DNA of 56,702 bases from positions 1 to 56,702 of the IMG/VR virus record IMGVR_UViG_3300049846_000236; one strand, given 5' to 3'. A model generated the notes under the pieces. The model saw only the letters and a list, made by a program, of their open reading frames with translations, ran no database searches and had not been told where the DNA came from. The position numbers and the translations under genes were made by a program. Positions 19,878 through 56,702 of the stretch are shown one piece after another; the stretch's first letter is position 1; each line of letters opens with the position of its first letter. This stretch comes from a virus (taxonomy: Duplodnaviria; Caudoviricetes).

Positions 19878-20362
19878 ACTTCCTCCAAGGAAAGGCTAAC
19901 GTTCCAGAGGTCCGTTATTACAGAAACTCCTCTTTCCATCCTGACATTACGCTTTGCAATGTCGTAGGAGAAGTCAGAAAACCTCATGGTATATCTGTCA
20001 CCGGCTGAAATGACCGCTGACTCTAATGTGCCTCTTGCTGCTAGGTCGCGGCTGTAAAGGAATACATAAAATTCCTTGTCATAGTATGATCGGTAAAAGT
20101 CTAGAAGATCCCAGCCGCCCTTGTATCCGTCGAGTGTGTGCTGATATGTCGCTGGGAGGCCGTCCCACGAAACCTGAAAGGAAGTTTTCTGTGCTACAAC
20201 GTATGAACGCATTGTTCCATTTACAGTGCGCTTACGGTTTTCAATGATTTCCTCGGTAGCATTTAGTTCGCTGCGGTTATGCTCAGAAAGGAAGCCGTCC
20301 TTGGCACCGGCTCCGGTGTCCTTAAAGTAGATAAGACTGTTTACGGGTAGAGTCAATGGCAT
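19874..20362 (-). CDS. distal tail protein-like
   Basis: Immediately follows the tape measure; C-terminal WNVSLSLEEV. Confidence 0.7.
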   Translation of the reverse strand: MPLTLPVNSLIYFKDTGAGAKDGFLSEHNRSELNATEEIIENRKRTVNGTMRSYVVAQKTSFQVSWDGLPATYQHTLDGYKGGWDLLDFYRSYYDKEFYVFLYSRDLAARGTLESAVISAGDRYTMRFSDFSYDIAKRNVRMERGVSVITDLWNVSLSLEEV

Positions 20363-31697: not shown

Positions 31698-34600
31698 TCA
31701 CCATACAGAGACTCCGCCGCCGGTGGTCCCCTCAGAAACAGAAACAGATTGTCCTGTCGTACCCTCTACATTAACCTCTCCAAATACGACTGTAGTAACA
31801 CTAGATGAATCAATAGCGCTAATCGTAGAGAAGTCAGAGCCAGTTACAGAAATTTGAGTAATTTCTTCAACCACTACCGACTCTGAACCCTGGATTACCC
31901 CAGAATCGCTGGCCGACTTCGATACAACACCAACTATTTCAACAGTAGAAACGTCTGACCCATTTATTCCACCAGAGTCAAATACCTGAACAAGCGCTGA
32001 GACCGCAACTGATTCAGAAGAGGTCAGGGAACTAGAGTCTGATGCCGCAACAGGGATCTGTGCGAAGGTGCCCGAGTCGGTACCGATTACCTGGCCTATA
32101 TCGGTGGTGCTAAGTGTTACATATGTTCCAACGCTTTCTGTACTAGAAATTGTTCCAGTGTCAGAGATGTTCGCCCTTGCCGCAATTGCTACAGACTCAG
32201 AAGATGAAATGCTACCGCTGTCACTGGTTGACTTTGTGTCAAAGACCGTCAGCACGGTTGCAGAATCTGAACCTTGAATTACACCACTATCTGATCCCGG
32301 TAGGCTGTTAAATACCGTAACCGTGGTGTCTGTTCCAACCAGCGTGCCGGTGTCTGTCGCAGACAGGGCAATCGGTGTCTGGAATGCCCCAGAGTCGGCG
32401 GCTGCAATATTTGAGGTGTCAGAGGCTGCAACAGATACCGTTCCGAAGGCTGCCGTTTCAGAAGAATTCAGGGTTCCAGTATCAGAGGAAGTTACAGACA
32501 CTACCACAATAGCGGTCTCGCTGGATGATAGTGTTCCTGTATCAGAAGCAGTAATATCAGAAACTCCAGAGGCTACAACGGATGCAGAGTCGGATCCGGA
32601 AATTGTTCCAGAGTCACTTGTGGATATTGGAACCATAATTGCAGACGAATCTGTTCCAACAACCGCTCCCGTGTCTGTGGTAGAATTCTTAAATACGTTT
32701 GCAGAGTCAGAACCGCTAACTGTGCTGGAATCTGTAGATGAGAACGATGCCGTTACCGACGCGATATCACTTCCAGAAATTGTCCCGGTATCACTGGCAG
32801 AAACCGTAATATTTCCAGAAATATCAATTGTCGCCGTGTCTGTTCCTACAATTACTCCAGAGTCAGACCCTGGATAATTAACAAAGATGAAGGCGCTATC
32901 TGTTCCAGAAATAGTGCTGGAGTCTGCTGCTGTTACCGACACTGTGGCAAACGAGCCGGTATCTGTTCCTACCACCGCACCAGTGTCTGTGGTTGACAGC
33001 GTGACATAAAATGCAGTGGTCTCTGTGGCGGAAATCGTGCCAGTATCAGTTGTTGATGTAGAAACTGCCGTTGCTACAGATTCAGTCGAAACTATTGCTC
33101 CGGAATCAGTTGCAGAAATTGGAACCTGAGTCGTCACAGATTCAGAAGAACTTATCGTTCCGGTATCTGTTGTGCTAAATGATGCTCTCGTTGCTACTGA
33201 CTCTGTTCCGGTTACCGCGCTCGTATCGGTCGTAGACATTGTTATGCTTGTTGAAATAGCAGCATCTGTTCCAGTTATTGCTCCGGTGTCGGTTGTCGAA
33301 ATTGATACTGCTATTACTGACGAATCGGTGCCAGTTATTGTACTAGAGTCAGAGGCAGATACCGCTACCGTAGCGAACGTTCCGACGTCAGTTCCGGTAA
33401 TTGCATTAGAGTCTGATACTGTAATTGTTACCAGGGAGATGGACCCTGAGTCTGTTCCAACAACCACGCCAGAATCTGTAGTGCTTAACGAAACCGCCGT
33501 CGATACAGACTCTGCAAGGACCAGGGTCCCTGTATCAGAAGCATTTACAGATATCGTTCCAGTAATTTGGACATTTGATGTTTCAGATACAGAAATTGTG
33601 CCTGTGTCCGACCCTGGATAATCTGCTCTGGTTGATACAGACTCAGAAGAAGATATCGCTCCAGTGTCACTGGCTGCCACGGCCACCGTCGAGAATGTGC
33701 CTACGTCAGAGCCAGAGATTACTCCGGAGTCGGTGGTTGACAGGGTTGCAGACGTTGCTACGGATTCACTAGAAGAGATGGCCCCTGTATCAGTGGTTGA
33801 TAATGTCACGCTTGTTGATGTAACCGTATCTGTACCAGTTATGGCTCCAGTGTCTGTTGTAGAGAATGATGCGACAGGGCTAGAAGATTCAGAACTTGCA
33901 AGGGTTCCTGTATCTGCTGCCGTGATCGGGATTGTTCCGAATACATAAGATTCAGTAGAGGAAATTGTTCCGGTATCCGAGGCCGTTGTCGTTGCAGTTA
34001 TCGCTACCGACTCAGTGAGCGCTACAGTTCCAGTATCAGAAGCGCTGGCTGGAGTTATATCTAGGCCTGGCTTAATTGCAAGCACCAACACTACCCTGTT
34101 TGTGGTTGACTGATCGTATCCTCCGTCGGTGGTTGCTCCAACCTGAACACTGGCCCCTCCGGTAACCTCCTTCTGGTTTATAGCGGTGGCGAATGTTGGT
34201 GTTGCAGCAGCGTTTAGAGATGTTTCTACTACCTCAGAATATCCCGTTGGCGCAGTTTGTGTAGTTGTGCCTGTATTATTTACTCTCCAAGAGTGGAATG
34301 CTAAGATCAGGTCGTCTGCTGTAACCGGTGTGGTCGCAGAGGTACCCCAAGTTGACGAGGCTGTTCCAGATGCGACAGCCGTTTCTTGTACATCCACCCC
34401 TCCGTCGTTTTCTACAATTACAACACCAATCGACCATTTCTGGGAGTTTGTCAGTGTCCATGAAACATTCGTTCCTGAGTCAGATGAGGCTAGGGACTTT
34501 CTATATACCTTCTGCTGTAGAACTGTTGAAGATGACGTAAAGTCCAGAAGGGTCCACCCGGACGGGTCTCCACGGTCAGTGGCGGTGTTTGCCTCCACGA

Positions 34601-44475: not shown

Positions 44476-47400
44476 TCACACCGAAATTGTCTGGCTATTC
44501 CAAATGTTTGAGTAGTATCTTGGGAGAGAATCTGCTACTGTACGGCTTCCTGGGGCATCCGAGAATGACCCTGTAGTTACATCACCGAGATAGGCCTTGT
44601 AGTTGGCCAGTACCTGCTGGGCTGTAAATGTCTGTGAATAATATGAAACATTTTGGTATCTAGCAGACGACTGTGTTCCAGCGGGGGCTGGAATTCCAAA
44701 ATTCATATTAGCGGTAATAAGGTTAATCTGCGTAGAGGCATTGGTCAGAACGATGTGGTGCCATCTGTTATACCAGGTTGTAGACGTTGCAGCGTTCGCA
44801 GTGGAAACTCCATCAACATATAGTGTTGTAAATCCTGTGGTAGTAAATCCGCCAACGTCATAATACCTCATAGAGTGCTCAGTTCCGTCATAGTAGACAT
44901 AATAACCCTGTGTTTCTGGATAAAGCCAGAACTCTACGGTTCTTATGAGCGGGGTTGGTCCAGCAGTGGTCGCACCGGATCCGCCAGTAGGAATAGACGT
45001 GTTTGTAGTATCATTTACTGGATCTAGTATGATAACTGAGGTGCTTGCCGTAACCCTAGCCCCATTTTCTACATCCTGTCTTATCATTGGTAAATTCTTA
45101 TTAAAGAAGTTTCTCCTGGTTCCTGATTCTAGCAAATCTAAAGAGTTTTCAGAATACTGAACTGAGTCATAGAATCCAATTAATTGTAGTTCGTTTAGTT
45201 TAACCGGATTATAATATGAGTCATCTGTTGTTAGAACCACCTTAGCATAGTTTGCTGTTGGAAGGTTAGTAGGGAACGAGGTGGAGACAAACTCTCTTCC
45301 ATTTGTGGGTGCTGTGTATGACGTGTCATCTACAGATGTTGTTACGGAGATGTTTGAGTTTCTCGGACTCCAATATATTTGTGTTTGCTGAACACTTTCT
45401 GTTCCATCTGATCCCGTTAGAGCAGAAACCTTTACTAATCCAGATTGAGATACATTAAGGCTAGAGCCAAGTTTCGCAGTGAACCCATTTACAGAAGTCT
45501 TATTTGATGTAAACAGGGAAGAATCCTGAACCTCTGGATACAGTTTAAGCAACTTGAAATAGTTATTCCAGGTTCTTAATTCGTCAGCACCGGCCCCCAG
45601 GTGCAGGTATGAATTTTCATCAAACTGCGGGGCTTTTACGCCATTATCAAAGGCGATTTGAGCGGGGCTGGATGTTGTATTAACATATAGACTAAGAATT
45701 CCAAGCCCCCACTCAACGTAGAAGTACGGCATAGTTGCAAGCAGCGAGGAAATGGCTCCCCATGAAGCCTCTGTTGTTGTCAAGTCACCGGCAGTGTTTA
45801 GGTACTTGTATCGAAGGTATAGGTTCTTGTCGGACTTCTTGACAATTTCAATCACGCTATCACCAGCAGTGTTAGAAATTGATGCCAGGCACTGCTCTTG
45901 AATATTATCATTTTCTATGGCAGTAAAGTCTGCGTGGAATCCAAACGCCCCTTGACTTTTTCCTAAGTACCTACCCGCGTTCCTAACCTTAATAAACATC
46001 GAATCCCGAAGATTGATCTCGTCAATATTATACGCGCCCTCGTAATAATTAGTCTCTGCTCCAAGGTAGACAGCCGCCGAATCAATGTAGTGTAACTCAT
46101 TCGCTGCAGCGGTAGAGAAAACCTGAACGCCAAGCCTGCATGACACCGCGCCGACTGGTGCCGTAGCGGTAACGGTGTGCTTAGTCCATGCGGAGGTTGA
46201 GTTTGTTGTTCCAGATCCGCTGACCGCGCTTAAGAACCCCCCGCTCTGATTGTAAAAGTAAATATCTGCCCCTACAGACCTGGTAAGAGATCCCGCGAGG
46301 CTATGAAGTACGCCAGAAATTTTCTGACCAGGGACAATTCCTGATATCCCTGTCTGCCAGTACAACTGCATCGTTCCGGCTGCGTTGGAAGACATTCTTG
46401 CACTTCCGCCAGCATTATGCATAATTGTCGGAGCATGAGCGGCGGTGCAGTTAGTTCCAGCGACCCAACTGTTTAGACCACCATCAACTCTTGATGCCAG
46501 CGTCCCAACGAGGTTCTTTGGATAGTCGGAAGCATCAATTCCGGGTGGAATCCTATAGTCATTTGGCTCATTCCATGTTGTTGAAGAGCCCTCTCTGACC
46601 ATTAGTTCATCAAACCAATATGAGTCCCCGGACACCGGGTTTGTAGAAACTATTCCAATAGTACACGAGGCCGCATTTGCTGGGGCCGTAGCAGTAACTG
46701 CTCTACTCTCCCAAGTATTAGCAACAGCGGTTACGCTGTGTACGTTAGAAACAATATAGGCTCCCCCCGCAGTCCACCAGTCAATAGCGACCTGAGTGTT
46801 TCTGGCGGCAGAGCATCTAATTCTTGCTGTTGCGGTATAAGTCTTTCCCGGCTCCACCGCTGGGCCTGCTCCTCCTGCAATTCCAAAGTTTGTTTGTGCT
46901 ACTCCGGTGCCACTTGTGTATGTAACCTTAAAAGCGTATGATCCTGAATACACCTGGTCTGTTGCTGCTGTAAAGGTATAGGTAAGCGCACCTGGATTAT
47001 ATGTATTTGTAATTCCAGTTGTAACTCCGTTTTCTGCTGTAGCCTGATTCCAGGTCAACAAGTTCCCATAATAACTTGGAGATGTTCTAAGTTCCACCGG
47101 AGGGATTTTCTTAAGACCAACGGAGCCATCATCATTTACAATTACATCGGTAAGTGTGATTGCATTAGACTTCCACCCCAGAGAAGCACCCGACCAGTCG
47201 AAGATTTTAGTTCTATCCTCATCATTGATCTTAATGATCTTTCCACCGAGTGAATTGACAATATCGACCTCTGCAACATTTGGAGTTGACATAAAATAGT
47301 GGTTATTGATTGACGTAGGATCTAGAGCCTGACGATAGAAAGAGACCCCATCAATAATAAACTCTGCAGTTTCAGTTGCTGTCGGAGGCCTATTTGCCAT

Positions 47401-47991
47401 AGTAACGAAGTTGGCTGTTGTATGAGACCAGCCTGGCCCCTGTGAAAGATCTGCTGAATCGACCAACTTCCCATCTACATAGAGGGAAATTTTTGTTGTA
47501 TCATATACCGCTATCACATGATATGTTCTACCGGGCTCCAAATATTTTTGTGTCACTGCCCTAAATGTAGCCGGTGAGGTATCGCTGCCGTTGCTAACTA
47601 CAAACCTGAGACTATTATTTACACAATAAATTCCATTTTCCATTACATAGGCAGACGAGGCTGCTTGTGGGGCAAAAAGGATGCTCTCTCTGGTCCCGCC
47701 GACCGGCTGGAAGGTAAATTCAACGCTAAATGGAATGTGGTTCCTATTTACCTCCCACGCCTCCATAGCGGGGTAAGTTAGTTTGTGGTTTGAGTTATAA
47801 AACCTGTACGCAATATCGCTGCTAGAACCGGTGACCAGCGGACGATAACCCCTATCAATCAGATCTGTTGCTTCTGTGATAGTGGCTGTCTTACCATTTC
47901 CTGAAAGGTCTGTTTCCGAAGTTCCTGATGGGGCGGTGATCATCCAGAAGCCAGCAGGCCTATCGGCTAGTACGGTTTGGACATAACTCAT
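44476..47991 (-). CDS. LamG/concanavalin-like and CBM-containing virion protein
   Basis: MSYVQTVLADRPAGFW start; FSVEF...YHVIAVYD...LYVDG (LamG); two CBM_4_9-like units; C-terminal TVEFW...WHHIV LamG-like unit. Confidence 0.8.
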   Translation of the reverse strand: MSYVQTVLADRPAGFWMITAPSGTSETDLSGNGKTATITEATDLIDRGYRPLVTGSSSDIAYRFYNSNHKLTYPAMEAWEVNRNHIPFSVEFTFQPVGGTRESILFAPQAASSAYVMENGIYCVNNSLRFVVSNGSDTSPATFRAVTQKYLEPGRTYHVIAVYDTTKISLYVDGKLVDSADLSQGPGWSHTTANFVTMANRPPTATETAEFIIDGVSFYRQALDPTSINNHYFMSTPNVAEVDIVNSLGGKIIKINDEDRTKIFDWSGASLGWKSNAITLTDVIVNDDGSVGLKKIPPVELRTSPSYYGNLLTWNQATAENGVTTGITNTYNPGALTYTFTAATDQVYSGSYAFKVTYTSGTGVAQTNFGIAGGAGPAVEPGKTYTATARIRCSAARNTQVAIDWWTAGGAYIVSNVHSVTAVANTWESRAVTATAPANAASCTIGIVSTNPVSGDSYWFDELMVREGSSTTWNEPNDYRIPPGIDASDYPKNLVGTLASRVDGGLNSWVAGTNCTAAHAPTIMHNAGGSARMSSNAAGTMQLYWQTGISGIVPGQKISGVLHSLAGSLTRSVGADIYFYNQSGGFLSAVSGSGTTNSTSAWTKHTVTATAPVGAVSCRLGVQVFSTAAANELHYIDSAAVYLGAETNYYEGAYNIDEINLRDSMFIKVRNAGRYLGKSQGAFGFHADFTAIENDNIQEQCLASISNTAGDSVIEIVKKSDKNLYLRYKYLNTAGDLTTTEASWGAISSLLATMPYFYVEWGLGILSLYVNTTSSPAQIAFDNGVKAPQFDENSYLHLGAGADELRTWNNYFKLLKLYPEVQDSSLFTSNKTSVNGFTAKLGSSLNVSQSGLVKVSALTGSDGTESVQQTQIYWSPRNSNISVTTSVDDTSYTAPTNGREFVSTSFPTNLPTANYAKVVLTTDDSYYNPVKLNELQLIGFYDSVQYSENSLDLLESGTRRNFFNKNLPMIRQDVENGARVTASTSVIILDPVNDTTNTSIPTGGSGATTAGPTPLIRTVEFWLYPETQGYYVYYDGTEHSMRYYDVGGFTTTGFTTLYVDGVSTANAATSTTWYNRWHHIVLTNASTQINLITANMNFGIPAPAGTQSSARYQNVSYYSQTFTAQQVLANYKAYLGDVTTGSFSDAPGSRTVADSLPRYYSNIWNSQTISV

Positions 47992-47998
47992 ATCCTTG

Positions 47999-48027
47999 AT
48001 TATATCGCTGATTGGGGTAAAAAGCAA
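47999..48027 (-). promoter_or_regulatory. promoter for LamG gene (leaderless)
   Basis: TTGCTT-17-TATAAT; ATG 7 nt downstream; the -35 overlaps the terminator tail. Confidence 0.65.
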
Positions 48028-48057
48028 TTACCCCCGGAGATCATCCGGGGGTAACGC
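48019..48057 (-). terminator. intrinsic terminator
   Basis: TTACCCCCGGA-5 nt-TCCGGGGGTAA stem followed by TTGCTTTTT. Confidence 0.8.
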
Positions 48058-48158
48058 TGTAACTACCATCCTAAGGCGCACTGCACTTAGGCCCAACGAG
48101 TTCTCCGCGCCTCAGCACGGGCGGACCCGTTCTACCCGTACCACCACAGTACGGGGGA
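48058..48158 (-). ncRNA. candidate structured RNA between endolysin stop and terminator
   Basis: Hairpins CCCGTAC/GTACGGG and ACGGG/CCCGT, plus a long stem CCGTGCTGAGGCGC/GCGCCTTAGGATGG; family not recognised. Confidence 0.35.
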
Positions 48159-48752
48159 TTATCTCCTAAAGAGATTGCGGAGTTTCTTACGAGCGTCCGA
48201 CAATTTCTTGGAAAGACTAGTGATCTGCCTTCTCGTAGCCTCTACTGCAACCCAAAGATTGTAGTTGAAAATGGTTCTCTTAATATTCGGTGGGAACCAT
48301 GTTGGGTCGTCCCCTCCACCGGCCAGACCATCCTGGTGAATATAGTAGTCATCTACCTGTCCAGGGACATACTGACCAACAGGGGCAACCCACTTCTGCT
48401 TGTATTTTGGAAGCGAAATCATATGAATGTGATATGAGAATCCCTGCGCGGGGGTGCGAACCCAGGCAGCCCAACCGTTCTTACGGAGGAACTTCTGAGC
48501 CTCGTACCAGTCCATTCCAACAATCTGTACGTCGAGTACAGCATCCTTATCGTGGGTGCCAGCACTTGCCTCTACAGTTGTGTTGTATGAACCCTGAATA
48601 ATACGCAGGACATACTGCTTCCTGTTCTTCTCACCGAGTTTTCTTAGGCGATACTTAGTACGGTCTAGGTGCTCGGCGGTGCGCTTGGAGCACTTAAACT
48701 GTGTGCCATAAATGTTCGGCTGCGAGTAATAGACAATATCTGATTGTGCCAT
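48159..48752 (-). CDS. putative endolysin (Zn peptidase, M15-like)
   Basis: QGSYN...SAGTHD..AVLD...WAAWVR...HIH motif typical of actinophage lysins; leaderless after TGATATAAT. Confidence 0.7.
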   Translation of the reverse strand: MAQSDIVYYSQPNIYGTQFKCSKRTAEHLDRTKYRLRKLGEKNRKQYVLRIIQGSYNTTVEASAGTHDKDAVLDVQIVGMDWYEAQKFLRKNGWAAWVRTPAQGFSYHIHMISLPKYKQKWVAPVGQYVPGQVDDYYIHQDGLAGGGDDPTWFPPNIKRTIFNYNLWVAVEATRRQITSLSKKLSDARKKLRNLFRR

Positions 48753-48764
48753 ACTGCAATTATA

Positions 48765-50726
48765 TCATGCAGAAATTTCGATTGCACTGGTCAGATCGAC
48801 TACATCACAGTTTCCGGCGGTGCAAGCCAGTTCCTGACTTCCGGTGGTTGAATCGATCAACTCGTAAAGTGCTAGGTCGGACCAACGGATCTCAGCGGGC
48901 ATCTTAGCCTTTAGAGCGTTGTATTCTTCCTCAGAAACTGGCTGGTACGGGGCCTGCTGGTAGGTGTGATCGTCGTATGGCAAGAATGACAGGCCACCAA
49001 CGTCCTCCCAGTTTTCGTAGATCCATGCGGCTACATCGACCCACTCCTCGTCGCGTACCGAAACGGTGATCGACGGATTGTGCTCAGTCCAGTGCTTTTT
49101 GTAGACCTTCCAAATGTTGAGGTGGTCAATTGCACTGATATCACGACCGACCTTGGCATTTTCTGGTGCCTTGATCGGGAAGGAGAACACTGTCGAGGTT
49201 TCCGGGGCCATGAGGTCAGCCTCATATGGGATTCCGATTTCCTTAAGGAATACCGTCAGCGGATCCTTATTATCTGCACGAACTGTGCGAATGTAGAAGT
49301 TGCTGTACCAGAAGTGCATTCCAGAGGATACCTCGGTCAACTGAGATACTGTGCCGGAAGGCTTGACAGTGGTAATTGCCGTCGATGGGTTAATACCCAT
49401 CTGCTTGGCAACGAGCGCGTTAGTCTCGATTGCCAACTCGCGCAATTCGTCTAGCCACGCTGCGGCCTTGTCGAGTCCCTCAGAGCCATTAAGAACCGGG
49501 TGTGCCATCTGACCTGTGAGAGAAACACCGAGCAGGCGCTCCTCTTCACAGTTATCTCTCCATACCTTACGAAGATACTTAAAATTAGTCAGTGACGACT
49601 GAATCGTACCCAATACGGCTGCTGTTGCGACCTTAGACTTAAGGTCTTGAAGGCGGTCTGTGTCTCTGACAACGACTTCTGTAAGGTTACAAAACTGGTT
49701 CGGACGGAGGAGAATTTCTCCACAAGGATTGGTAAATGCAACCTTAGAACCGTCGCGGCGTCCGTTACTGGAAGCGTGCCTACGGTTTCCTTCCTTATTG
49801 AAGATTCCTCGCTCACCGGACTGACTCTCCCATAGGTGACTCCATTCTGTTAGGAACTGCCCAACTGAGGGCTTAGTGTTGTAAACCGCCGAGTTGTTGG
49901 CTAGACGGCGCTGGGGCTCTGTCTCCCACCACTTACCGGACTTGGCCTTGGCCATATCGAAATCACCCAGGTCAGACCCAGAAATCATGGCAGAACGACG
50001 AACACCGCCAACTACTACGACCTCCCCGATCTTACACATAATGTCGTGGGCTTCGATTGGCTGCAACTTGCGTCCTGCTGCATTGGTGAAAATGCCAACT
50101 ACGAACTCGAATAGGTCTGCTAGCGGTTCCGGCCCGCTGGCGCGGCCACCGAAAGTCTTTAGCCGAGCACCGGCAGGACGCACCTTGTCCATGTTCCAGG
50201 TGGGAATCTGACCTGCGTAGAGCATGGCAATAAGTTCACGAAGCGCACGAGCCCAACCTGCCTTAGAATCCTCTACGACAATAACTGTGTCAGAGTTCTC
50301 GAAGTGCTCATTAACTGCGGGGAGTTGTGATACATACTCCTGCTCAACAGAAAAGCCTACTCCGGTTCCGCACATAAGAACATACATTGCTTCATCGAAC
50401 GCACGAATAGAATCAACTGCGATGAAGGAGCAGTTGTATCCAGCGGTGTGGTCACGCTCTAGTGCTGGCCCTGCTGTCATGAGGGCACGCATCGAAGGCA
50501 TTACCTCATGGTTAAGGATCGACTGCCTAGCGCCTTCCTTAAACTTGTCATTCTTCCAGCCATAAGTCTTACTGGCGTAGTCAAACATAAACTCTGTGTA
50601 ACGGTCAACCGTCTCACTCCACGTTTCACGACGGTTCTCTTCCTCGATCCAACGCGCATACCGCGACACCGCGATAAAATTTCGATAGGGGTCGATGATC
50701 GAGCCCTTCTCGTCTACCAATTTCAT
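48765..50726 (-). CDS. nrdJ: class II (adenosylcobalamin-dependent) ribonucleotide reductase
   Basis: PSMR, YNCSF, GTGVGFS, GGVRRSAMI, TNPCGEI, CNLTE, VKPSGTVSQL and C-terminal CTAGNC. Confidence 0.95.
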   Translation of the reverse strand: MKLVDEKGSIIDPYRNFIAVSRYARWIEEENRRETWSETVDRYTEFMFDYASKTYGWKNDKFKEGARQSILNHEVMPSMRALMTAGPALERDHTAGYNCSFIAVDSIRAFDEAMYVLMCGTGVGFSVEQEYVSQLPAVNEHFENSDTVIVVEDSKAGWARALRELIAMLYAGQIPTWNMDKVRPAGARLKTFGGRASGPEPLADLFEFVVGIFTNAAGRKLQPIEAHDIMCKIGEVVVVGGVRRSAMISGSDLGDFDMAKAKSGKWWETEPQRRLANNSAVYNTKPSVGQFLTEWSHLWESQSGERGIFNKEGNRRHASSNGRRDGSKVAFTNPCGEILLRPNQFCNLTEVVVRDTDRLQDLKSKVATAAVLGTIQSSLTNFKYLRKVWRDNCEEERLLGVSLTGQMAHPVLNGSEGLDKAAAWLDELRELAIETNALVAKQMGINPSTAITTVKPSGTVSQLTEVSSGMHFWYSNFYIRTVRADNKDPLTVFLKEIGIPYEADLMAPETSTVFSFPIKAPENAKVGRDISAIDHLNIWKVYKKHWTEHNPSITVSVRDEEWVDVAAWIYENWEDVGGLSFLPYDDHTYQQAPYQPVSEEEYNALKAKMPAEIRWSDLALYELIDSTTGSQELACTAGNCDVVDLTSAIEISA

Positions 50727-50814
50727 ATAAAGTTCTCCCTAAAGTGCGCGTTCCAGCGCCAAAGATTTTGATGTTCTAACTAGTATACCACCGCTACTTT
50801 AGGTGATCAGATCG

Positions 50815-51801
50815 TTACGAAAATTTTTCAACGATGTGATCGAACGCGGTGCGAGTCACTTCTAACCAATCATAGTGCTCATGAATTTCCGGCGCAACTT
50901 GGAAAGCCTTTTCGGAAAACGTCTCGTAGTCGTCTGCAACTCTCTGCATCTGTTCCTTTAGAGACTCGAAGTTAGGCTCTAGCACCTTGCCAGGGTGAAC
51001 GTCTGGCCACAGTGAGTCCACCTCGCGGTCTGCAACGTCTAGACCGACCGAGAATTGACTGTATGGGGCCCAAGTAGGGTTAAGAATTGTAGGCATTCCT
51101 GAGGCCATCGCTTGAAGCGGGATGAACCCAAAGCCCTCACCGTAGGAAGGGTACAAAAGAACATGATGTTGGTTGTAAAGTGCTACCATTTCATCTCCGG
51201 AGATAACCTCCTTGATTACCTTAACATTTTTCTTTAGATCCGCTGGTCCTGCGAGGCTGCCGTCTGGCAACTTGGCCCGGACAGTTGAATAACCGTTCGC
51301 CTTGATGGTAAGTTGATACCTAGGATCTTCCCCGAAGACCTCCATGAATGCATCGAACACCATTTGTCCACACTTGCGGTGTGCCGGTTCTCCTACATGT
51401 AAAAATTTGAGTCTACTAGCAGGCTTCGGCCTTCTAAAAGGTTGCCAAACATGCTCAATTCCATGTTCGTAAACAAAGAGGGGTTTAGTAACTCCGGCAT
51501 CTCTAAAAACCTTTTTACACCAGGGGGAAGTTGTCCACACTTCATCACAATTATTCATAGCATCTACCCATCCATCGTGTAATGCTGTAGATTCCCAGGG
51601 GGTATATCCAATGGTATACTGTCCTGGGTGCCACTGGAAATAATAAGGCTGGGTAAAGTTAAGTAGTACAGGGCTGCCCGGATGATTAAACGGAGTAGTA
51701 TGTCCTAGTTCCTGAAGCGATTTTACTATGTTGTATCCGGCATATCCATACCCCTGGGTAATTTCCAATCCCCCAGCGTGAGTGTGAAAGGCTATCTCCA
51801 T
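50815..51801 (-). CDS. glycosyltransferase (GT-B, GT4-like)
   Basis: YTPWEST, RKCG and YPSYGEGFGFIPLQAMASGMP; start MEIAF after AGGAG. Confidence 0.88.
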   Translation of the reverse strand: MEIAFHTHAGGLEITQGYGYAGYNIVKSLQELGHTTPFNHPGSPVLLNFTQPYYFQWHPGQYTIGYTPWESTALHDGWVDAMNNCDEVWTTSPWCKKVFRDAGVTKPLFVYEHGIEHVWQPFRRPKPASRLKFLHVGEPAHRKCGQMVFDAFMEVFGEDPRYQLTIKANGYSTVRAKLPDGSLAGPADLKKNVKVIKEVISGDEMVALYNQHHVLLYPSYGEGFGFIPLQAMASGMPTILNPTWAPYSQFSVGLDVADREVDSLWPDVHPGKVLEPNFESLKEQMQRVADDYETFSEKAFQVAPEIHEHYDWLEVTRTAFDHIVEKFS

Positions 51802-51892
51802 CGTTCTCCTTGTGTAGGACAACATTCTACCAATCTTTTGGCCCTAAAGCCACTTTGTATATGTATTCATGATCATGCATACCAATTCACAG

Positions 51893-51921
51893 TTGACACA
51901 GGAAGCCGGAACCCCTAAAAT
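51893..51921 (+). promoter_or_regulatory. consensus sigmaA promoter
   Basis: TTGACA-17-TAAAAT; ATG 6 nt downstream. Confidence 0.8.
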
Positions 51922-51927
51922 AGTATT

Positions 51928-52206
51928 ATGTTAGTAGGAAATACTATAGTATCAGGAATTCATAGATATAGAAGAGAATATGTAGATACTAATATTCTAC
52001 CTGATCTATATTGTTCCAAAAATGACGGCACGCACCTTCCATTGGTAGTCCGAGTAGACAACCATGACAACGTATACTTATACTGTTTGTCCTGTGACTT
52101 TGAGAAGCGTGCCGGTCTTGTGACCTTGGACACACTCATGCGCCTAATGCGCTGGCGAGACTTGAATCCGTCACTGCCCTTCCTTGACACTGAAATAACC
52201 GTCTGA
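51928..52206 (+). CDS. hypothetical protein (possible Zn-binding)
   Basis: C...H and CLSC motifs; leaderless start. Confidence 0.65.
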   Translation: MLVGNTIVSGIHRYRREYVDTNILPDLYCSKNDGTHLPLVVRVDNHDNVYLYCLSCDFEKRAGLVTLDTLMRLMRWRDLNPSLPFLDTEITV

Positions 52207-52212
52207 TAGACT
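52184..52212 (+). promoter_or_regulatory. consensus sigmaA promoter
   Basis: TTGACA-17-TAGACT. Confidence 0.8.
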
Positions 52213-52245
52213 AGTTACTCCTTCTGTGTTGCGGAAGGAGAAAAC

Positions 52246-52845
52246 ATGACGAAAATAATGGCAATATCCCTCGTCCCCGTTCTGATGGTTGTAGGATTTC
52301 TTGCACATCAGGAGACACCGAGGCCAAGCCAAGATGCTAAGTCTGTCGCTATCGACGCAACACCGCCTGTTAAAAACAATGAGTCCGCCAAGGACTTGCA
52401 GCGCAGAAGGACAGCAGTATTACTACAGGCCTCCCGCGATAAAGAGCGGGAGAATAGAATTTGGCGTCGTGAGAGAGCGGAGGCCAGAGCAGAAGCGCGA
52501 GCAGAACGTAGAGCAGCAATTGCCGAACGTGAAGCGGAGGCCGAAGCAGCAACCCGAGCAGGAACACGCTCAGGGTCGAGCACTTTGCCCGACCTGTTGT
52601 TGTTAATTAGAGAGCATGAGTCTGGTGGAAATTATCAGGCTTATAACCCTTCGGGGTGTATTGGTGGGTGCTATGGAGCATACCAGATGACAGCAGAATA
52701 CATGGATGATTGGGCCCGCGAAGCGGGATACCCTGATTATGCGTATGTTGGATTCTGGCCCGCCGAGATACAGGATGCGGTGGCTCTCTATAAATTCAAT
52801 CAGACTGGTGGTGCCCTATGGTGCGACTGGACCGATTATTGTTGA
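52246..52845 (+). CDS. secreted lysozyme-like transglycosylase (Rpf/SceD-like) with coiled-coil linker
   Basis: N-terminal signal/TM segment, ERAEARAE coiled coil, IREHESGGNYQAYN...GAYQM...QDAVA...W. Confidence 0.75.
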   Translation: MTKIMAISLVPVLMVVGFLAHQETPRPSQDAKSVAIDATPPVKNNESAKDLQRRRTAVLLQASRDKERENRIWRRERAEARAEARAERRAAIAEREAEAEAATRAGTRSGSSTLPDLLLLIREHESGGNYQAYNPSGCIGGCYGAYQMTAEYMDDWAREAGYPDYAYVGFWPAEIQDAVALYKFNQTGGALWCDWTDYC

Positions 52846-52869
52846 TTACTCCATGTGAGTGAACGGCTA

Positions 52870-52898
52870 TTGACAGTTACCCCCATTCTTGATAGAGT
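52870..52898 (+). promoter_or_regulatory. consensus sigmaA promoter embedded in an inverted repeat
   Basis: TTGACA-17-TAGAGT; inverted repeat CAGTTACCCCCA/TGGGGGTAACTG spans 52874-52909. Confidence 0.7.
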
Positions 52899-52929
52899 GG
52901 GGGTAACTGCTATCCAAGGGAGGATAACT

Positions 52930-53787
52930 ATGAAGAGGATCACACTGATTCTTAGCACCATGCTAGTAGCATTTCTTATGGGTGGTTCCTGGGCTTGGGC
53001 CGGGGAAACTCCTTCGTCCGATGACGACTGTACCACTGAAACTACCGGTTGGGTTCTTGAATCGCCCGGCCAGGATTGGACCCAGGTAGATCAGCGCACC
53101 GTTGTCGATGAGGAAGCCTGGGACGAGACTGTTGTTGATGTAGAAGCACAGCATTATTCTCTAAAAGGCAATTCTGGAATCGGAAAGGACGAAATTCCAG
53201 TGTTTCCTGCTGATTACTGGCAGGCCAACGCGCCATTAGAGCCACACTATCAGGGACACGGACTACCAGCATCGAATGTTGATGGCAGCGATTATATAGA
53301 AGGTCAGTCTGGCCTTCACTATACATCACAGGGCTCCGAGGGTCTTCGTGACTGGTTCTACTTCCAGGCGGAAGAGAGCCACGTTGTGCATCACGATGCT
53401 GTGACACACGAAGAGTTTGTATTTTCCAAGACAACGTGTGATAACCCGCACCCGCAGACTATTGCTTTGCGTGCTCACAAGTCAACGTGTGAGGGGAACT
53501 TCATGGCTACCATCACTATTACTACGCTTGACGGAAAGGTAATTTCTAAAGAGCGTAGCAAGTGGGTTAAGGTATCTAATCTCACCCATGCTCAGAAGGT
53601 TCAGTTGGAGTGTCTGACTCCGATCAAGCCTGAACCTACGCCAGACAAGCCTGAGGGGGCTGTGCCGGTCGCTGAGGAATTGCCCCACACCGGAGGCAAC
53701 CTCGCCCTCGCTGGAATTGCTGGGGCTCTCCTGGCAGCGGGAAGCGGCCTTGTGTGGTTTAGCCGCCGCCGCTTGACAGACGTGTGA
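52930..53787 (+). CDS. sortase-anchored (LPXTG) cell-surface protein
   Basis: Signal peptide MKRITLILS...AWA; Pro-rich linker; LPHTG, hydrophobic helix and RRR tail; start after GGAGGA. Confidence 0.85.
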   Translation: MKRITLILSTMLVAFLMGGSWAWAGETPSSDDDCTTETTGWVLESPGQDWTQVDQRTVVDEEAWDETVVDVEAQHYSLKGNSGIGKDEIPVFPADYWQANAPLEPHYQGHGLPASNVDGSDYIEGQSGLHYTSQGSEGLRDWFYFQAEESHVVHHDAVTHEEFVFSKTTCDNPHPQTIALRAHKSTCEGNFMATITITTLDGKVISKERSKWVKVSNLTHAQKVQLECLTPIKPEPTPDKPEGAVPVAEELPHTGGNLALAGIAGALLAAGSGLVWFSRRRLTDV

Positions 53788-53801
53788 GTAGATGGTAAGA
53801 T
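53773..53801 (+). promoter_or_regulatory. consensus sigmaA promoter of the tRNA/RNase P operon
   Basis: TTGACA-17-TAAGAT with extended TG. Confidence 0.8.
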
Positions 53802-53867
53802 AGATCCATCATCTTGTTGCGAAACATGATAAGGCCGTGAGTGGGGGCTAAAATACTCACTCATCAC

Positions 53868-53938
53868 GCCAGATTAGCATAGTGGCAGTGCGGTGCTCTT
53901 GTAAAGCATTGGCGACAGTTCGATTCTGTCATCTGGCT
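53868..53938 (+). tRNA. tRNA-Thr(UGU), no encoded CCA
   Basis: Acceptor GCCAGAT/ATCTGGC; anticodon arm GTGCT-CTTGTAA-AGCAT; T arm GACAG-TTCGATT-CTGTC. Confidence 0.92.
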
Positions 53939-53939
53939 C

Positions 53940-54031
53940 GGTCGTGTAACGTTATTGTTGGCTCCGTGCGGTGCCCGGTCTTGATCACTCTGGGTAAAAA
54001 GCCAAGGCGGGTTGAGTTCCCCCCACGATCT
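53940..54031 (+). ncRNA. tRNA-like RNA with expanded anticodon arm
   Basis: Acceptor GGTCGTG/CACGATC; TTGGCT/AGCCAA stem enclosing about 36 nt; T-like arm GCGGG-TTGAGTT-CCCCC; wedged between two tRNAs with 1-2 nt spacers. Confidence 0.55.
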
Positions 54032-54033
54032 AT

Positions 54034-54104
54034 GCCTCTTTAGTTTAATGGTAGAACATCTGTTTCGTAATCAGATAGTCGGAGTTCGATTCTCCGTCGA
54101 GGCT
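54034..54104 (+). tRNA. tRNA-Thr(CGU), no encoded CCA
   Basis: D arm GTTT-AATGGTA-GAAC; anticodon loop TT-CGT-AA; T arm CGGAG-TTCGATT-CTCCG; two mismatches at the base of the acceptor stem. Confidence 0.85.
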
Positions 54105-54171
54105 CGTGAATAAATATGACGGACTCACTCTGGCAGAAAAAATGTTAGCCGTGGCATTGGAGCCCGTAGAA

Positions 54172-54397
54172 GAACTTGTGACCGAGGCACCGCAGGAAAC
54201 TGAGGAAAGTCCGGACTCCTAAATGGAACCGTGTGGCCAGCCCTTAATCAGGCCCCACTAAGCCGAAACTTAAAAAGCAATGGTGCAGGGTAGGAGCAAC
54301 CTCAAGCAGATATGGCGTGCCATTTCGTTTACATATCGGGTAGAGGGCAAAGATGGATGGTGCCTCTCGACAGAATCCGGCTTATAGGTCACAATTC
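54172..54397 (+). ncRNA. rnpB: RNase P RNA (compact bacterial type-A catalytic domain, reduced S-domain)
   Basis: GAGGAAAGTCCGGACTCC (54202-) and ACAGAATCCGGCTTA (54370-) signatures. P1 TTGTGACC/GGTCACAA, P2 GAGGCACCG/TGGTGCCTC, P3 CAG-GAAA-CTG, P5 CTCCTA/TAGGAG, P6 AAATGG/CCATTT, P15 CCTC/GAGG with GGGTA, P16 GATATG/CATATC, and AGATGGAT before the P2 3' strand. Confidence 0.9.
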
Positions 54398-54422
54398 ATG
54401 TAACTACTAACAAGGGAAATAA

Positions 54423-55367
54423 ATGTTTACAACCATTTTGCTGGCTGTACTTATTCTTACAATTATCGTCGGTGTTATCGTTTGGGGTCGCATTGATGCT
54501 TCCCAATCGGCAGACCACGAACTTACAAAGAAAGTTGTTGGATGGTCTACTGTTGGTGTTGGTGTGCTGACAGCGGCTCTTCTTATTTTCTCGACACTTG
54601 TTATCGTTCCGACCCGCGAGGTGGGTATTAAGTTGACCTTCGCCAAGCCTGTCGGTACATTGTCGAATGGTCTGCACGTCAAGGCCCCCTGGCAGAGTGT
54701 TGAGCACATGGATGCTGCCATTCAGACGGATAACCACGTCAAGGACGGTGGAGAGACTTCTGACGGTTCGCATAGCCTTTCTTGTGTGACCACCCGCATC
54801 GCTCACCAGGCTGTCGCCTGCGTAGACGTTACTATCAGGTGGCGTATTATTGACGACCAGGCGGCGCAGTTGTTCCAGAACTACCGTACCTTCGGAAATG
54901 TTCGGGACTCTCTAGTAACTCGTGACCTTAATTCAGCAGTGAATGCCACTATGGAAACATATGACGTGCTTTCTGTTGATGAGAACGGTCAGGCTACCGC
55001 GCCTGAACTGTCAGAGGTCGCTAAGTCTGTCATGGAGGAAATGAACGCTCAGATTGGCGATCAGATCGAGGTTCTACAGGTTATTATCCCCGTTGTCCAC
55101 TTTGACGACGCCACTCAGAGTCGCGTCAATGCTCTACAGAGCCAGATTGCTCAGACCCGTATTGCAGAGCAGGCAGAGCGTACCGCTATTGCCCAGGCCA
55201 AGGCCAACAAGGAACTCGCCGCTTCGGTTTCTAACGATCCAAACGTGCTAGTGTCTAAGTGCCTTGATCTTCTGAACGAGTCTATTACTAAGGGGTATCC
55301 CCTTCCAGCCGGGTTCTCCTGCTGGGGTGCATCTAGTGCTATTGTGGTACCATCTGCTAAGTCATAA
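54423..55367 (+). CDS. SPFH/band 7 (prohibitin-like) membrane protein
   Basis: Two N-terminal TM helices, IVPTREVGIKLTFAKP...GLHVKAPWQSV, and a C-terminal AEQAE coiled coil. Confidence 0.88.
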   Translation: MFTTILLAVLILTIIVGVIVWGRIDASQSADHELTKKVVGWSTVGVGVLTAALLIFSTLVIVPTREVGIKLTFAKPVGTLSNGLHVKAPWQSVEHMDAAIQTDNHVKDGGETSDGSHSLSCVTTRIAHQAVACVDVTIRWRIIDDQAAQLFQNYRTFGNVRDSLVTRDLNSAVNATMETYDVLSVDENGQATAPELSEVAKSVMEEMNAQIGDQIEVLQVIIPVVHFDDATQSRVNALQSQIAQTRIAEQAERTAIAQAKANKELAASVSNDPNVLVSKCLDLLNESITKGYPLPAGFSCWGASSAIVVPSAKS

Positions 55368-55422
55368 CCAGAAATGTGATAAACTAGTCTGTAGACTAGT
55401 CTAACACAGGAGGTGTTTATTT

Positions 55423-55575
55423 ATGGCAGCAGAAACAGCAGCACAGCGTTACGCCCGTGATTGGGCTTCGCAGAGCACGGAACGCAAGGACCGTGGACTT
55501 GATGCACAGCCAAACGAGCGCACCGACCGTCTTTACGTTCACAACGGATCGACTTCGGTTAACAAGAACAACTAA
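55423..55575 (+). CDS. small hypothetical protein (50 aa)
   Basis: AGGAGGT RBS; MAAETAAQRYARDWASQ...NKNN; below the ORF-track cut-off. Confidence 0.6.
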   Translation: MAAETAAQRYARDWASQSTERKDRGLDAQPNERTDRLYVHNGSTSVNKNN

Positions 55576-55608
55576 ACCGCCCGGTGGGTGCGGTAAAACC
55601 CACCACTT

Positions 55609-55682
55609 GCCAGCGTAGTATAACGGTATTACACAAACTTGGTACGTTTGTGAAGGGAGTTCGACTCTCCCCGTTGGCTCCA
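55609..55682 (+). tRNA. tRNA-Thr(GGU) with encoded CCA
   Basis: Acceptor GCCAGCG/CGTTGGC-T-CCA; anticodon arm CAAAC-TTGGTAC-GTTTG; T arm GGGAG-TTCGACT-CTCCC. Confidence 0.93.
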
Positions 55683-55702
55683 TAAAATTTTGGAGGGATA
55701 TT

Positions 55703-56062
55703 GTGGAAGTAGTTGCTTTAGTTGTATCAGTAGCGTCCCTTATCCTCGTATTGCGTATTTTAAAGACTGAAAGAGATCACAACGTAGAGGTTGTGAGGGA
55801 ATTAAAGTCTCTCGACAAGAAACTGGATAACCAGGAGAGCACGGTCGGAAATCTGTCTAGTAGGCTTAGTCTGTTGCTTAGGATGCTCCGTCAGCACATG
55901 AAGGATGGGGAAATTTTGGTGCAGGTCGGTACAGCGAATGACAGGAAATTGATCAACGCTCTACAGGCTGCCGGAATTTATGTACAGTTCGACGAGTTCC
56001 CTCAGACAGAATTGGGTAGGTCTAAAGTTATTGCAGAAATGTTGCATGGAGAGGAGATCTAA
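55703..56062 (+). CDS. membrane-anchored coiled-coil hypothetical protein
   Basis: GGAGGG RBS, N-terminal TM segment, coiled coil. Confidence 0.65.
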   Translation: MEVVALVVSVASLILVLRILKTERDHNVEVVRELKSLDKKLDNQESTVGNLSSRLSLLLRMLRQHMKDGEILVQVGTANDRKLINALQAAGIYVQFDEFPQTELGRSKVIAEMLHGEEI

Positions 56063-56253
56063 TGGATAAGGTTTTCATCTTCAAAGACGTTGCCGGGGAA
56101 TACCGCTGGACACGCAAATCTGCCAATGGTAGAATCGTAGCAGACTCCTCAGAGGGCTACAACAACAAGGAAGATTGTGTTGATATGGCTTTAAGGATCA
56201 ACAAGGGCGCAGAGTTCTTTGTTGACGGCGTTTCGATTGCTAAGAGCCTGTGA
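56062..56253 (+). CDS. YegP/DUF1508-like protein
   Basis: FKDVAGEYRWTRKSANGRIVADSSEGYNNKEDC pattern. Confidence 0.75.
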   Translation: MDKVFIFKDVAGEYRWTRKSANGRIVADSSEGYNNKEDCVDMALRINKGAEFFVDGVSIAKSL

Positions 56254-56320
56254 ATTGGCTCCCGTCGATAGTTCTGGCTTCTGAGTTTTACATTGTATAC
56301 CTACAAGTGACAGGAAGGTT

Positions 56321-56686
56321 ATGAGAATTCTCATTACCGGCGGTCGTAACTGGACCGACAGGGAAACAATTATGCACGCATTACTAGAGGCCGCTCGTGG
56401 ACTTCATTGGGAAGATGTGACCGTAGTACATGGGGGCGCTCCTGGTGCAGACACAATTGCTGCTGAACTAGCGCATGGATTCGGTATGAATGTAGAAATA
56501 CACATGGCTAATTGGCAGGAATTTCATCGGGCAGCCGGTCCCATTCGCAATCAGGCGATGGTAGATGCTGGTGCCGATATCTGTCTGGCGTTTCTGATGC
56601 CCAATTCTAAGGGTACCGCCGACTGTGTTCATAGGGCTAAAAAGGCCGGAATCAAGGTTAGGGAGTATTACAGTGAACAAGTTTAG
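56321..56686 (+). CDS. SLOG superfamily (YspA/DUF2493-like) protein
   Basis: MRILITGGRNW, VVHGGAPGAD, AAGPIRNQAM and SKGTADC motifs. Confidence 0.85.
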   Translation: MRILITGGRNWTDRETIMHALLEAARGLHWEDVTVVHGGAPGADTIAAELAHGFGMNVEIHMANWQEFHRAAGPIRNQAMVDAGADICLAFLMPNSKGTADCVHRAKKAGIKVREYYSEQV

Positions 56687-56702
56687 GAAAAAGCCAGTAG
56701 TA
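56673..56702 (+). CDS. start of next phage gene (partial)
   Basis: GTG after AGGGAG; MNKFRKKPVV resembles a common phage protein N-terminus. Confidence 0.45.
   Translation, partial: MNKFRKKPVV

Follow-up and report, generated by a model that had tools for sequence, protein, structure and literature searches.

A miniature bacterial-type RNase P RNA gene among the tRNA genes of a tailed phage

Introduction

Two ribozymes are universal. One of them is RNase P RNA, which trims tRNA precursors and counts as a housekeeping gene of the cell. In its bacterial form, a GGU in the internal loop between helices P15 and P16 pairs with the 3'-RCCA end of the tRNA. The type T RNase P RNA of Thermoproteaceae such as Pyrobaculum is archaeal, is about 200 nucleotides (nt) long and has lost most of the specificity domain, and Min 1 and Micro P are engineered mini RNase P RNA constructs. 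Here we describe a miniature RNase P RNA gene on a 56,702-nt stretch of DNA from a large, uncultured tailed phage, the IMG/VR virus record IMGVR_UViG_3300049846_000236 (Duplodnaviria; Caudoviricetes; positions 1 to 56,702), which is referred to at its full length as the window. The gene is almost certainly a true RNase P RNA homologue that is under selection in the phage.

Several reduced or virus-borne forms have been described. In PMC8172020, the Thermoproteaceae RNase P RNA family is cited as lacking P12, the RNAs of Patescibacteria (candidate phyla radiation, CPR) as lacking P12, P13, P14 and P18, and that of Mycoplasma fermentans as also reduced. The bacterial RNase P protein binds mainly to the catalytic domain (C-domain), and in isolation the E. 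coli C-domain is active in its presence (PMC2615603). An RNA of camelpox virus that resembles RNase P RNA, discussed as a possible decoy in PMC3001073, was the only viral precedent found in our literature search. No report of a phage-encoded RNase P RNA was found in open-access papers and bioRxiv preprints, paywalled papers and the supplements of huge-phage surveys lying outside this search, and the available portion of a 2024 review (PMC11143913) reports none.

Results

An end-to-end match to class A RNase P RNA

When the window was searched with all Rfam models using Infernal, RF00010 (bacterial RNase P class A) matched the plus strand at 54174-54400 with 80.3 bits, end to end over model positions 1-367. 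The E-value was 1.7e-24 in the 1-kilobase (kb) stretch 53700-54700 and 2.3e-26 over the whole record, and this model, bact_a, was the best member of its Rfam clan for the window RNA. The RF00010 gathering score is 100 bits, and the match is visible in E-value mode only. Because the score lies under that threshold, the RNase P RNA is missing from a default Rfam scan of the window, which returned three tRNAs and nothing else. The shortfall is due to deleted modules, namely the specificity domain and P18, and not to a mismatched core: the core motifs GAGGAAAGUCCGG, GGAGCAA, CGGGUA, AGAUGGAUG and ACAGAAUCCGGCUUA all agree with the RF00010 consensus. From the 5' end to the 3' end of P1 the RNA measures 219 nt (54176-54394), and the open reading frames (ORFs) that overlap it on either strand encode only 32-40 amino acids.

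The first P4 segment, GAGGAAAGTCCGG(A) at 54202-54215, is the sole match in the window when up to one mismatch is allowed (chance expectation 0.04), and ACAGAATCCGGCTTA at 54370-54384 forms the other P4 strand. Both had been placed at these positions by a first-pass annotation made from the letters alone. Every other pairing or motif that it named (P1, P2, P3, P5, P6, P15-P17, the GGU and the AGAUGGAU joiner) is also present in the window, and the covariance-model match that it proposed as a check was obtained with RF00010, though under the gathering score. It did not point out the loss of the specificity domain and P18, the most unusual feature of the RNA.

A predicted catalytic domain without a canonical specificity domain

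The window RNA has in common with class A RNase P RNA (RF00010, E. coli M1 type) helices P1-P5, the P4 pseudoknot that conserved regions I and V build, and P6, P16 and P17, together with the P15 internal loop and its GGU and the J5/15 and J18/2-type joiners (Table 1). The P4 pseudoknot, with its bulged U, joins 54207-54215 to 54376-54383 and was 100% paired in the 11 sequences of the sub-family described below. The hallmark of type A is present as well, P16 and P17 occurring with a P6 pseudoknot that joins J5/7 and the P17 loop. The putative substrate-binding nucleotides, GCAAC, CGGGUA, AG..GAU and ACA.AA.CCGGCUUA, are invariant among the 11 sequences. A minimum free energy (MFE) fold of the single sequence recovers P1, P2, P3, P5 and P15-P17. 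In the predicted structure the catalytic domain is kept entire, with P1-P5, the P4 and P6 pseudoknots, P15-P17 with the GGU, and the conserved joiners.

The RNA differs from class A in its length (about 220 nt against 367 model positions), in having about 66 nt in place of P7-P14, in the absence of P18, and in a P3 of three base pairs (bp) closed by a GNRA loop; it is also phage-encoded, within a tRNA cluster, and below the gathering threshold. The class A features that it lacks are thus the gathering score, the specificity domain and P18. In the window alignment P3 of the model is mostly deleted, and the 24 model positions of P18, which would dock into P8 in class A, align to 0 nt. One of the 11 members (L052) carries extra hairpins at the P18 site.

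Table 1. Features of the RNase P RNA locus in the window. Percentages and fractions for pairs refer to the 11-sequence sub-family.
Feature	Position	Strand	Basis
Miniature RNase P RNA gene	54174-54400	+	RF00010 80.3 bits; own models R1 196 bits, R2 186.5 bits
P1, 5' strand	54176-54183, with 54387-54394	+	MFE fold; 88.6% paired, 7/8 pairs covary
P2, 5' strand	54184-54191, with 54359-54366	+	MFE fold; 86.2% paired, 6/8 pairs covary
P3, very short (CAG, GAAA loop, CUG; 3 bp)	54193-54202	+	90.9% paired
J3/4 and P4 5' strand, GAGGAAAGUCCGGA, conserved region I	54202-54215	+	Invariant 11/11; pairs with 54376-54383
P5, 5' strand CUCC	54216-54219, with GGAG 54293-54296	+	93.2% paired, 2 pairs changed on both sides
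P6 pseudoknot, 5' strand AAAUGG	54221-54226, with CCAUUU 54320-54325 in P17 loop	+	98.4% paired, 6/6 pairs covary
Specificity-domain (P7-P14) remnant, about 66 nt	54227-54292	+	Rfam alignment; 22 invariant columns (C59 to G118)
Short P7	ACC 54228-54230, with GGU 54289-54291	+	By eye
Helix capped by variable hairpin	GUGG 54233-54236, with CCAC 54255-54258	+	100% paired, invariant
J5/15 (GCAA) and P15-P17 block	54297-54348	+	Rfam alignment, direct reading
P15	54300-54303, with 54343-54346	+	74.4% paired
P16	54309-54314, with 54332-54337	+	70% paired
P17	54315-54317, with 54326-54328	+	100% paired
P15/16 internal loop CGGGUA with GGU	54337-54342; GGU 54339-54341	+	CGGGUA invariant 11/11
J15/2 joiner AAAGAUGGAU, conserved region IV	54349-54358	+	AG..GAU invariant
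J2/4 and P4 3' strand, CGACAGAAUCCGGCUUA, conserved region V	54367-54386	+	Rfam alignment, conservation
Promoter-like site TTGACA-17-TAAGAT, TG before second hexamer	53773-53801	+	Consensus scan only, 10/12 matches
tRNA-Thr (UGU), upstream of RNA	53868-53939	+	Rfam and tRNA scan of window
tRNA-Thr (CGU), ends 68 nt before RNA	54034-54105	+	
tRNA-Thr (GGU), downstream; only one of the three with encoded CCA	55609-55682; CCA 55680-55682	+	

Covariation in a sub-family of short RNAs

The window RNA belongs to a tight sub-family with ten relatives, found on viral and metagenome contigs. A sub-family-specific motif recovered loci L002-L004 in IMG/VR and 11 metagenome loci. With the sub-family model R1, full-length members scored 153-214 bits and other viral or cellular forms at most 80 bits; an interrupted gene (L044) and a truncated one (L048) scored about 101-103 bits. 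Eleven sequences were aligned (the window, L002, L003, L004, L043, L045, L046, L049, L051, L052 and L053), leaving out L047 (same contig as L002), L050 (one base from L043), L048 (at a contig end) and L044.

The structure was derived from the window and counted first on a plain MAFFT alignment, in which the paired fraction was 100% for P4, 93.2% for P5, 98.4% for P6, and 100% for both the GUGG/CCAC helix and P17. All six P6 pairs had changed on both sides. Covariation over the whole structure was 0.305 compared to 0.121 in shuffled alignments, and none of 500 shuffles reached as high a value. P1-P3 were out of register in this alignment because strand lengths differ between members, and also in model R1 and alignment A2 because the window P3 is 2 nt shorter; R1 and A2 were replaced by model R2 with alignment A3 and by an alignment-free test. 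After realignment with R2, 88.5% of cells were paired compared to 73.0% when shuffled, both sides had changed in 31 of the 57 base pairs, and covariation was 0.493 against 0.186 for shuffled alignments (0/500 as high) and at most 0.125 with slid partners. The nested helices in this alignment are fitted to the model; the P4 and P6 signal is not, since both helices lie outside it.

In the alignment-free test, duplex energies for the strands of one and the same sequence were set against those for strands exchanged among sequences. For P6 the own partner was the best in 11/11 sequences (mean -10.7 compared to -4.2 kcal/mol). The own partner was also best in 8/11 for P2 and in 7/11 for P1, the remaining four having one or two better or equal partners. 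RNAalifold predicted P1, P4 and P6 de novo. The covariation among homologues that the first-pass annotation had named as a check is strong, and it includes the P4 and P6 pseudoknots. The compensatory change that the annotation described in P4 (CCGGA/UCCGG) is real: among the 11 sequences the closing pair is G-C eight times and A-U, G-U and U-A once each, the A-U pair being that of the window.

Three relatives have features of their own. In L044 (147-867), about 470-490 nt are inserted into the RNase P RNA gene behind CACTAAGCCC, and the insertion holds a 176-amino-acid ORF (212-742) that carries zinc-finger and HNH-like motifs (...CIDCG...EFDH...CRNCH). This ORF may encode a homing endonuclease, possibly within an intron; the insertion gave no Rfam match to an intron. 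L050, almost the same as L043, has 14 tRNAs around it on a metagenome contig of 791,393 bases, which is a very large phage or else a prophage-carrying chromosome. A contig from sequencing run X5 matches the window only at 54202-54389 (at least 90% identity) with unlike letters on both sides, which suggests that the same community contains a related mini RNase P RNA whose P1-P3 strands differ.

The RNA is contiguous with phage genes

The window, a virus record estimated to be 44% complete, encodes a portal, a head protease, a capsid/structural protein, ribonucleotide reductase (RNR), a glycosyltransferase, a primase and a DnaB-type helicase. Its portal is 52-54% identical to portals of 120-134-kb Streptomyces phages (Stanwilliamsviridae), and the ORF just upstream of the tRNAs (52855-53787) has an LPXTG motif. 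These two features are consistent with a Gram-positive host, probably an actinobacterium, in keeping with the actinobacterial guess of the earlier annotation. The structural region also contains three long minus-strand ORFs, at 8664-14834 (2056 amino acids), 20362-27369 (2335) and 31698-37235 (1845).

The stretch was found whole in DNA runs of three studies and partly in others, and four runs were compared with positions 46000-56702. In run X4, one 16,087-nt contig covers 46000-52953 and 53640-56702, from RNR through the RNA, with 21 differences over the final 3,063 nt. In run X5, a 1,311-nt contig bridges 54238-55548, from the RNA to the next ORF. Contiguity with the phage genes, which the first-pass annotation had wished to see confirmed, is thus observed in contigs assembled from other runs, and because these contigs span both the RNA and phage genes, a host-DNA chimera at the locus is very unlikely. 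The X4 contig represents a variant strain, since 686 nt (52953-53640) inside the LPXTG ORF are exchanged for 713 unrelated letters between flanks that are about 99% identical. The exchanged segment has the look of a hypervariable cassette, and the protein that contains it is putatively a surface protein.

These data bear on whether the element is a working phage gene at all or instead a decaying fragment of host rnpB, mis-assembled host DNA or an attachment-site remnant. Such an origin would fit the score under the Rfam threshold, the position of the element 2.3 kb from the end of a window that holds about 44% of a genome, and the resemblance to host flanks of thirty IMG/VR loci that have a full-size RNase P RNA and 0-1 tRNAs nearby. 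However, a decaying fragment would not retain 31 of 57 compensatory pairs in 11 sequences, and contigs from other runs join the RNA to phage genes on either side. GC content is even along the window (0.45-0.51), the gene has both its 5' half and its 3' half, unlike an attP fragment, and at least three further large viral contigs have a member of this sub-family within a tRNA array. We regard this explanation as extremely unlikely; the attP-fragment, host-chimera and pseudogene readings were rejected on the covariation, the contig spans and the presence of both gene halves.

Association with tRNA genes

The only tRNAs of the window are three tRNA-Thr isoacceptors (UGU, CGU and GGU), all on the strand of the RNA and within 1.3 kb. 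The promoter-like site upstream of the first is a candidate start of a shared tRNA/RNase P RNA transcript, and the scan found no plus-strand terminator-like site after the RNA. In L004, L045 and L053, tRNA genes adjoin the RNA on both sides on the same strand, and in L003 a tRNA-Leu begins 5 nt past the element. Most metatranscriptome runs shared less than 0.1 of the words of the stretch. Run X19 contains a 197-nt contig that spans 54188-54381 and has 11 differences, and 27 of 30 bins over 10.7 kb were empty, a weak hint that the RNA of a close relative is abundant. Run X21 contained a tRNA-Thr identical to 53868-53939 with unlike flanks and did not cover the RNase P RNA.

IMG/VR was scanned for both exact P4 motifs, at short spacing first and then at longer spacings, which yielded 59 loci in total. 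Association with a tRNA array was found in 10/10 loci with a P4-motif distance of 159-223 nt (each with at least four tRNAs within 2 kb), in 3/6 at 236-256 nt, in 8/19 at 259-288 nt and in 8/24 at 290-318 nt, or 29/59 overall. The other 30 resemble host flanks, with 0-1 tRNAs in their vicinity. Nine of the ten short-spacing loci were scanned with RF00010 and all gave end-to-end matches of 207-281 nt, only two of which exceeded the gathering score (L006, 118.5 bits; L010, 136.2 bits). The tenth, L011, matches our own model and sits among 22 tRNAs. As read from these matches, an RNase P-like RNA is not unique to the window phage and recurs in tRNA arrays of other phages. A homologue of the window portal was found in only one of the ten short-form records (L002, 52% identity), so that the same RNA sub-family occurs in unrelated phage backbones. 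The tRNA array of L002 also holds GOLLD RNA (199.7 bits) and transfer-messenger RNA (tmRNA; 93 bits), at 2438-2853 and 6827-7195, and tmRNA matches were obtained in L003 and L007 too.

Ten loci (L066, L067, L069, L071-L073, L076, L077, L079 and L080) have an identical P4-motif distance of 288 nt. Seven of them have no tRNA, two have one and L077 has a tRNA array, and in several the RNA is near the locus end. They may be proviruses bordering host rnpB, a possible integration hot spot.

Among 185,579 species genomes, the same short spacing occurred in 31 contigs, each with 0-2 tRNAs nearby. Three of these (L018, L024 and L038) were set aside because runs of N make their short spacing uninformative, and the remainder are reduced cellular forms of different make-up (e.g., Elusimicrobia and Shapirobacteria). 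Eight Elusimicrobia-type metagenome-assembled genomes (MAGs; L012, L013, L021, L025, L026, L029, L032 and L037) share an RNase P RNA reduced to about 240 nt, and a tRNA-Met/tRNA-Val pair is conserved at a distance of about 0.6-1.5 kb; this looks like a reduced cellular form common to the lineage. A Pseudomonas sp. isolate contig (L042, 1172-1410) has an rnpB-like RNA with normal P8/P9 and P15-P18 that lacks the middle of the specificity domain and may be a second, deleted rnpB copy. A distant blastn search of 53800-54450 against 50,697 cultured-phage records gave no match, in a search that is blind to matches of the 13-15-nt motifs alone.

A conserved remnant in place of the specificity domain

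In the Rfam alignment, the segments of 15, 15 and 110 model positions that make up P7-P14 correspond to 20, 18 and 26 nt, and about 73 nt separate the 5' strand of P5 from its 3' partner in the window. A canonical specificity domain with conserved regions II and III is not found, and its ACAGARAC...GUGAAA motifs are not in the window sub-family. The short P7, read by eye, has an invariant CC/GG core, and its extensions vary but stay complementary (AUAGCC/GGCUAU in L002, CUCC/GGAG in L049, CAGCCC/GGGUUG in L051). The hairpin that caps the GUGG/CCAC helix ranges from 5 to about 31 nt across the sub-family. The remnant also contains a conserved stretch of about 30 nt, CACUAAGCC-GAAA-CUUAAAAAGCA-AUGGUG, with the consensus CACUAAGCC..A..UAA.AA..A, and the 22 invariant columns of Table 1 lie within the remnant. 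A candidate AAG/CUU hairpin, considered by eye, fails in L003 and L004 and was rejected. Because conservation is strong without obvious Watson-Crick pairing, the alignment suggests that the remnant is a tertiary or binding module.

A probable ribozyme with a host protein partner

The first-pass annotation had proposed that the phage carries its own RNase P-type RNA. Homology, covariation and phage context support this; together with the architecture and the recurrence in other phages, they are the observations from which we infer catalysis, use of a host protein, co-transcription with tRNA genes and a benefit to the phage. A profile search for rnpA (PF00825), in which control genomes scored, found none in the four viral records searched (the window, and L002, L003 and L004, which are 89%, 96% and 89% complete), in agreement with the earlier report of no rnpA-like ORF in the window. 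Because no phage rnpA was found, the partner would be the host RnpA, and the RnpA-contact regions of the C-domain agree with the consensus. We consider it probable that the element is a phage-encoded, miniaturised RNase P RNA that works as a ribozyme with host RnpA. The RNA would be transcribed together with the phage tRNA genes and freed from the joint transcript by tRNA end-processing enzymes, possibly by RNase P itself at the 3' side. It would then bind host RnpA and remove 5' leaders from phage pre-tRNAs, and possibly from host ones, during infection.

The lack of a phage rnpA could also mean that the ribozyme does not depend on host RnpA, and that it acts either alone or with an unrecognised phage protein that also replaces the specificity domain. 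The remnant, with its 22 invariant columns, could be a binding platform, and many neighbouring ORFs have no family match. However, no candidate protein was found, and such a protein would have to travel with the RNA across unrelated backbones (portal shared with 1/10 records), yet most loci are flanked by tRNAs only. With the agreement of the RnpA-contact regions also opposing it, this arrangement appears distinctly unlikely.

Several observations weigh against a working ribozyme with host RnpA. The RNA does not reach the RF00010 gathering threshold (80.3 compared to 100 bits), it lacks the canonical specificity domain, and its MFE energy is not unusual (z = -0.49). In PMC2615603, the isolated E. 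coli C-domain equalled, in a holoenzyme assay, a chimera whose rate fell more than 1000-fold short of wild type; efficient function would thus need the remnant module or a partner to make up for the loss. A CCA is encoded by one of the three window tRNAs and by 11 of 134 tRNAs across eight loci, and with so few encoded the contact between GGU and CCA would need prior CCA addition. The evidence from run X19 is a single low-depth contig from a 94%-identical relative, and transcript ends are unreadable from contigs. Run X4 is possibly the source sample of the window and hence not fully independent. L046 has no recognisable P2, and some sub-family copies (L046 and L044) may be decaying. Finally, the whole genomes of five cultured Streptomyces phage relatives gave no match to RF00010 (0/5) or R1 (0/5), so the RNA is dispensable in that lineage.

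Some of these points would suit a non-enzymatic decoy or sponge for host RnpA, pre-tRNAs or both, which would shut down or redirect host tRNA maturation during takeover. The RNA has lost its specificity domain and P18, cultured relatives can do without it, and an isolated C-domain is a poor enzyme that nevertheless keeps its protein-binding site (PMC2615603). Such a role has also been proposed for the camelpox virus RNA in PMC3001073. A protein sponge, however, would need neither an invariant P4 bulged U, J5/15 GCAA, P15/16-loop GGU and AG..GAU joiner nor a covarying P6, and the location in tRNA arrays, adjoining tRNA genes, suits a role in processing. We consider a decoy unlikely and favour the ribozyme acting with host RnpA.

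Discussion

The RNA described here resembles type T RNase P RNA in being natural, about 200 nt long and mostly devoid of a specificity domain. Type T RNA, however, has an archaeal core without the bacterial P15-P17/GGU module and works with archaeal proteins, whereas the window RNA is bacterial, with P15-P17, P6 and the GGU loop, and does not belong to that type. The reduced cellular forms (CPR, Mycoplasma fermentans, Elusimicrobia, Shapirobacteria and other MAGs) are of similar size and have lost P13, P14 and P18. These cellular short forms keep the ACAGARAC...GUGAAA(C) motifs, in contrast to the window sub-family, and they have 0-2 tRNAs nearby and score at most 75 bits with the sub-family model, compared to 153-214 for members.

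Engineered or isolated catalytic domains such as Ecat keep the protein-binding site and some activity (PMC2615603), and because they do, cleavage of pre-tRNA is possible at this RNA size. Laboratory constructs are much slower than wild type, whereas the window RNA is natural and conserved and has its own conserved replacement module. The camelpox virus RNA is likewise virus-encoded and resembles RNase P RNA, but it is a nuclear-RNA-like molecule of a eukaryotic poxvirus, whereas the window RNA belongs to a tailed phage and has a bacterial type-A core with conserved catalytic and substrate-binding nucleotides. The tRNAs, tmRNA and GOLLD of large-phage tRNA arrays share the genomic niche of the window RNA but are different RNA families with different functions. 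Lying on the same strand as and next to tRNA genes, the window RNA falls within a descriptive class of phage tRNA-array accessory RNAs.

The remnant raises a further, tentative possibility, that the module of about 66 nt, CC-GUGG...CCAC-UAAGCC...UAAAAAGCA...GGUG, stands in for the specificity domain of about 200 nt as a novel and compact equivalent. Large phages might then have evolved a minimal RNase P of their own that cleaves pre-tRNA efficiently and matures tRNA arrays independently of host RNase P RNA. Such independence could help, for instance, during degradation of host RNA or under host defences aimed at the tRNA supply. If true, no efficient natural RNase P RNA of the bacterial type would be smaller than the window RNA, and phage takeover genes would gain a new class.

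Since default Rfam thresholds miss such genes, they will escape phage annotation pipelines. The covarying sub-family and the 29 tRNA-array loci provide material for biochemistry and make roles in tRNA supply, host takeover or counter-defence testable. The extreme reduction is a natural experiment on minimal RNase P, in an RNA short enough for easy synthesis, mutagenesis and structure determination. A phage-borne RNase P RNA extends the translation-related repertoire of large phages, which includes tRNAs and tmRNA, to a tRNA-maturing enzyme.

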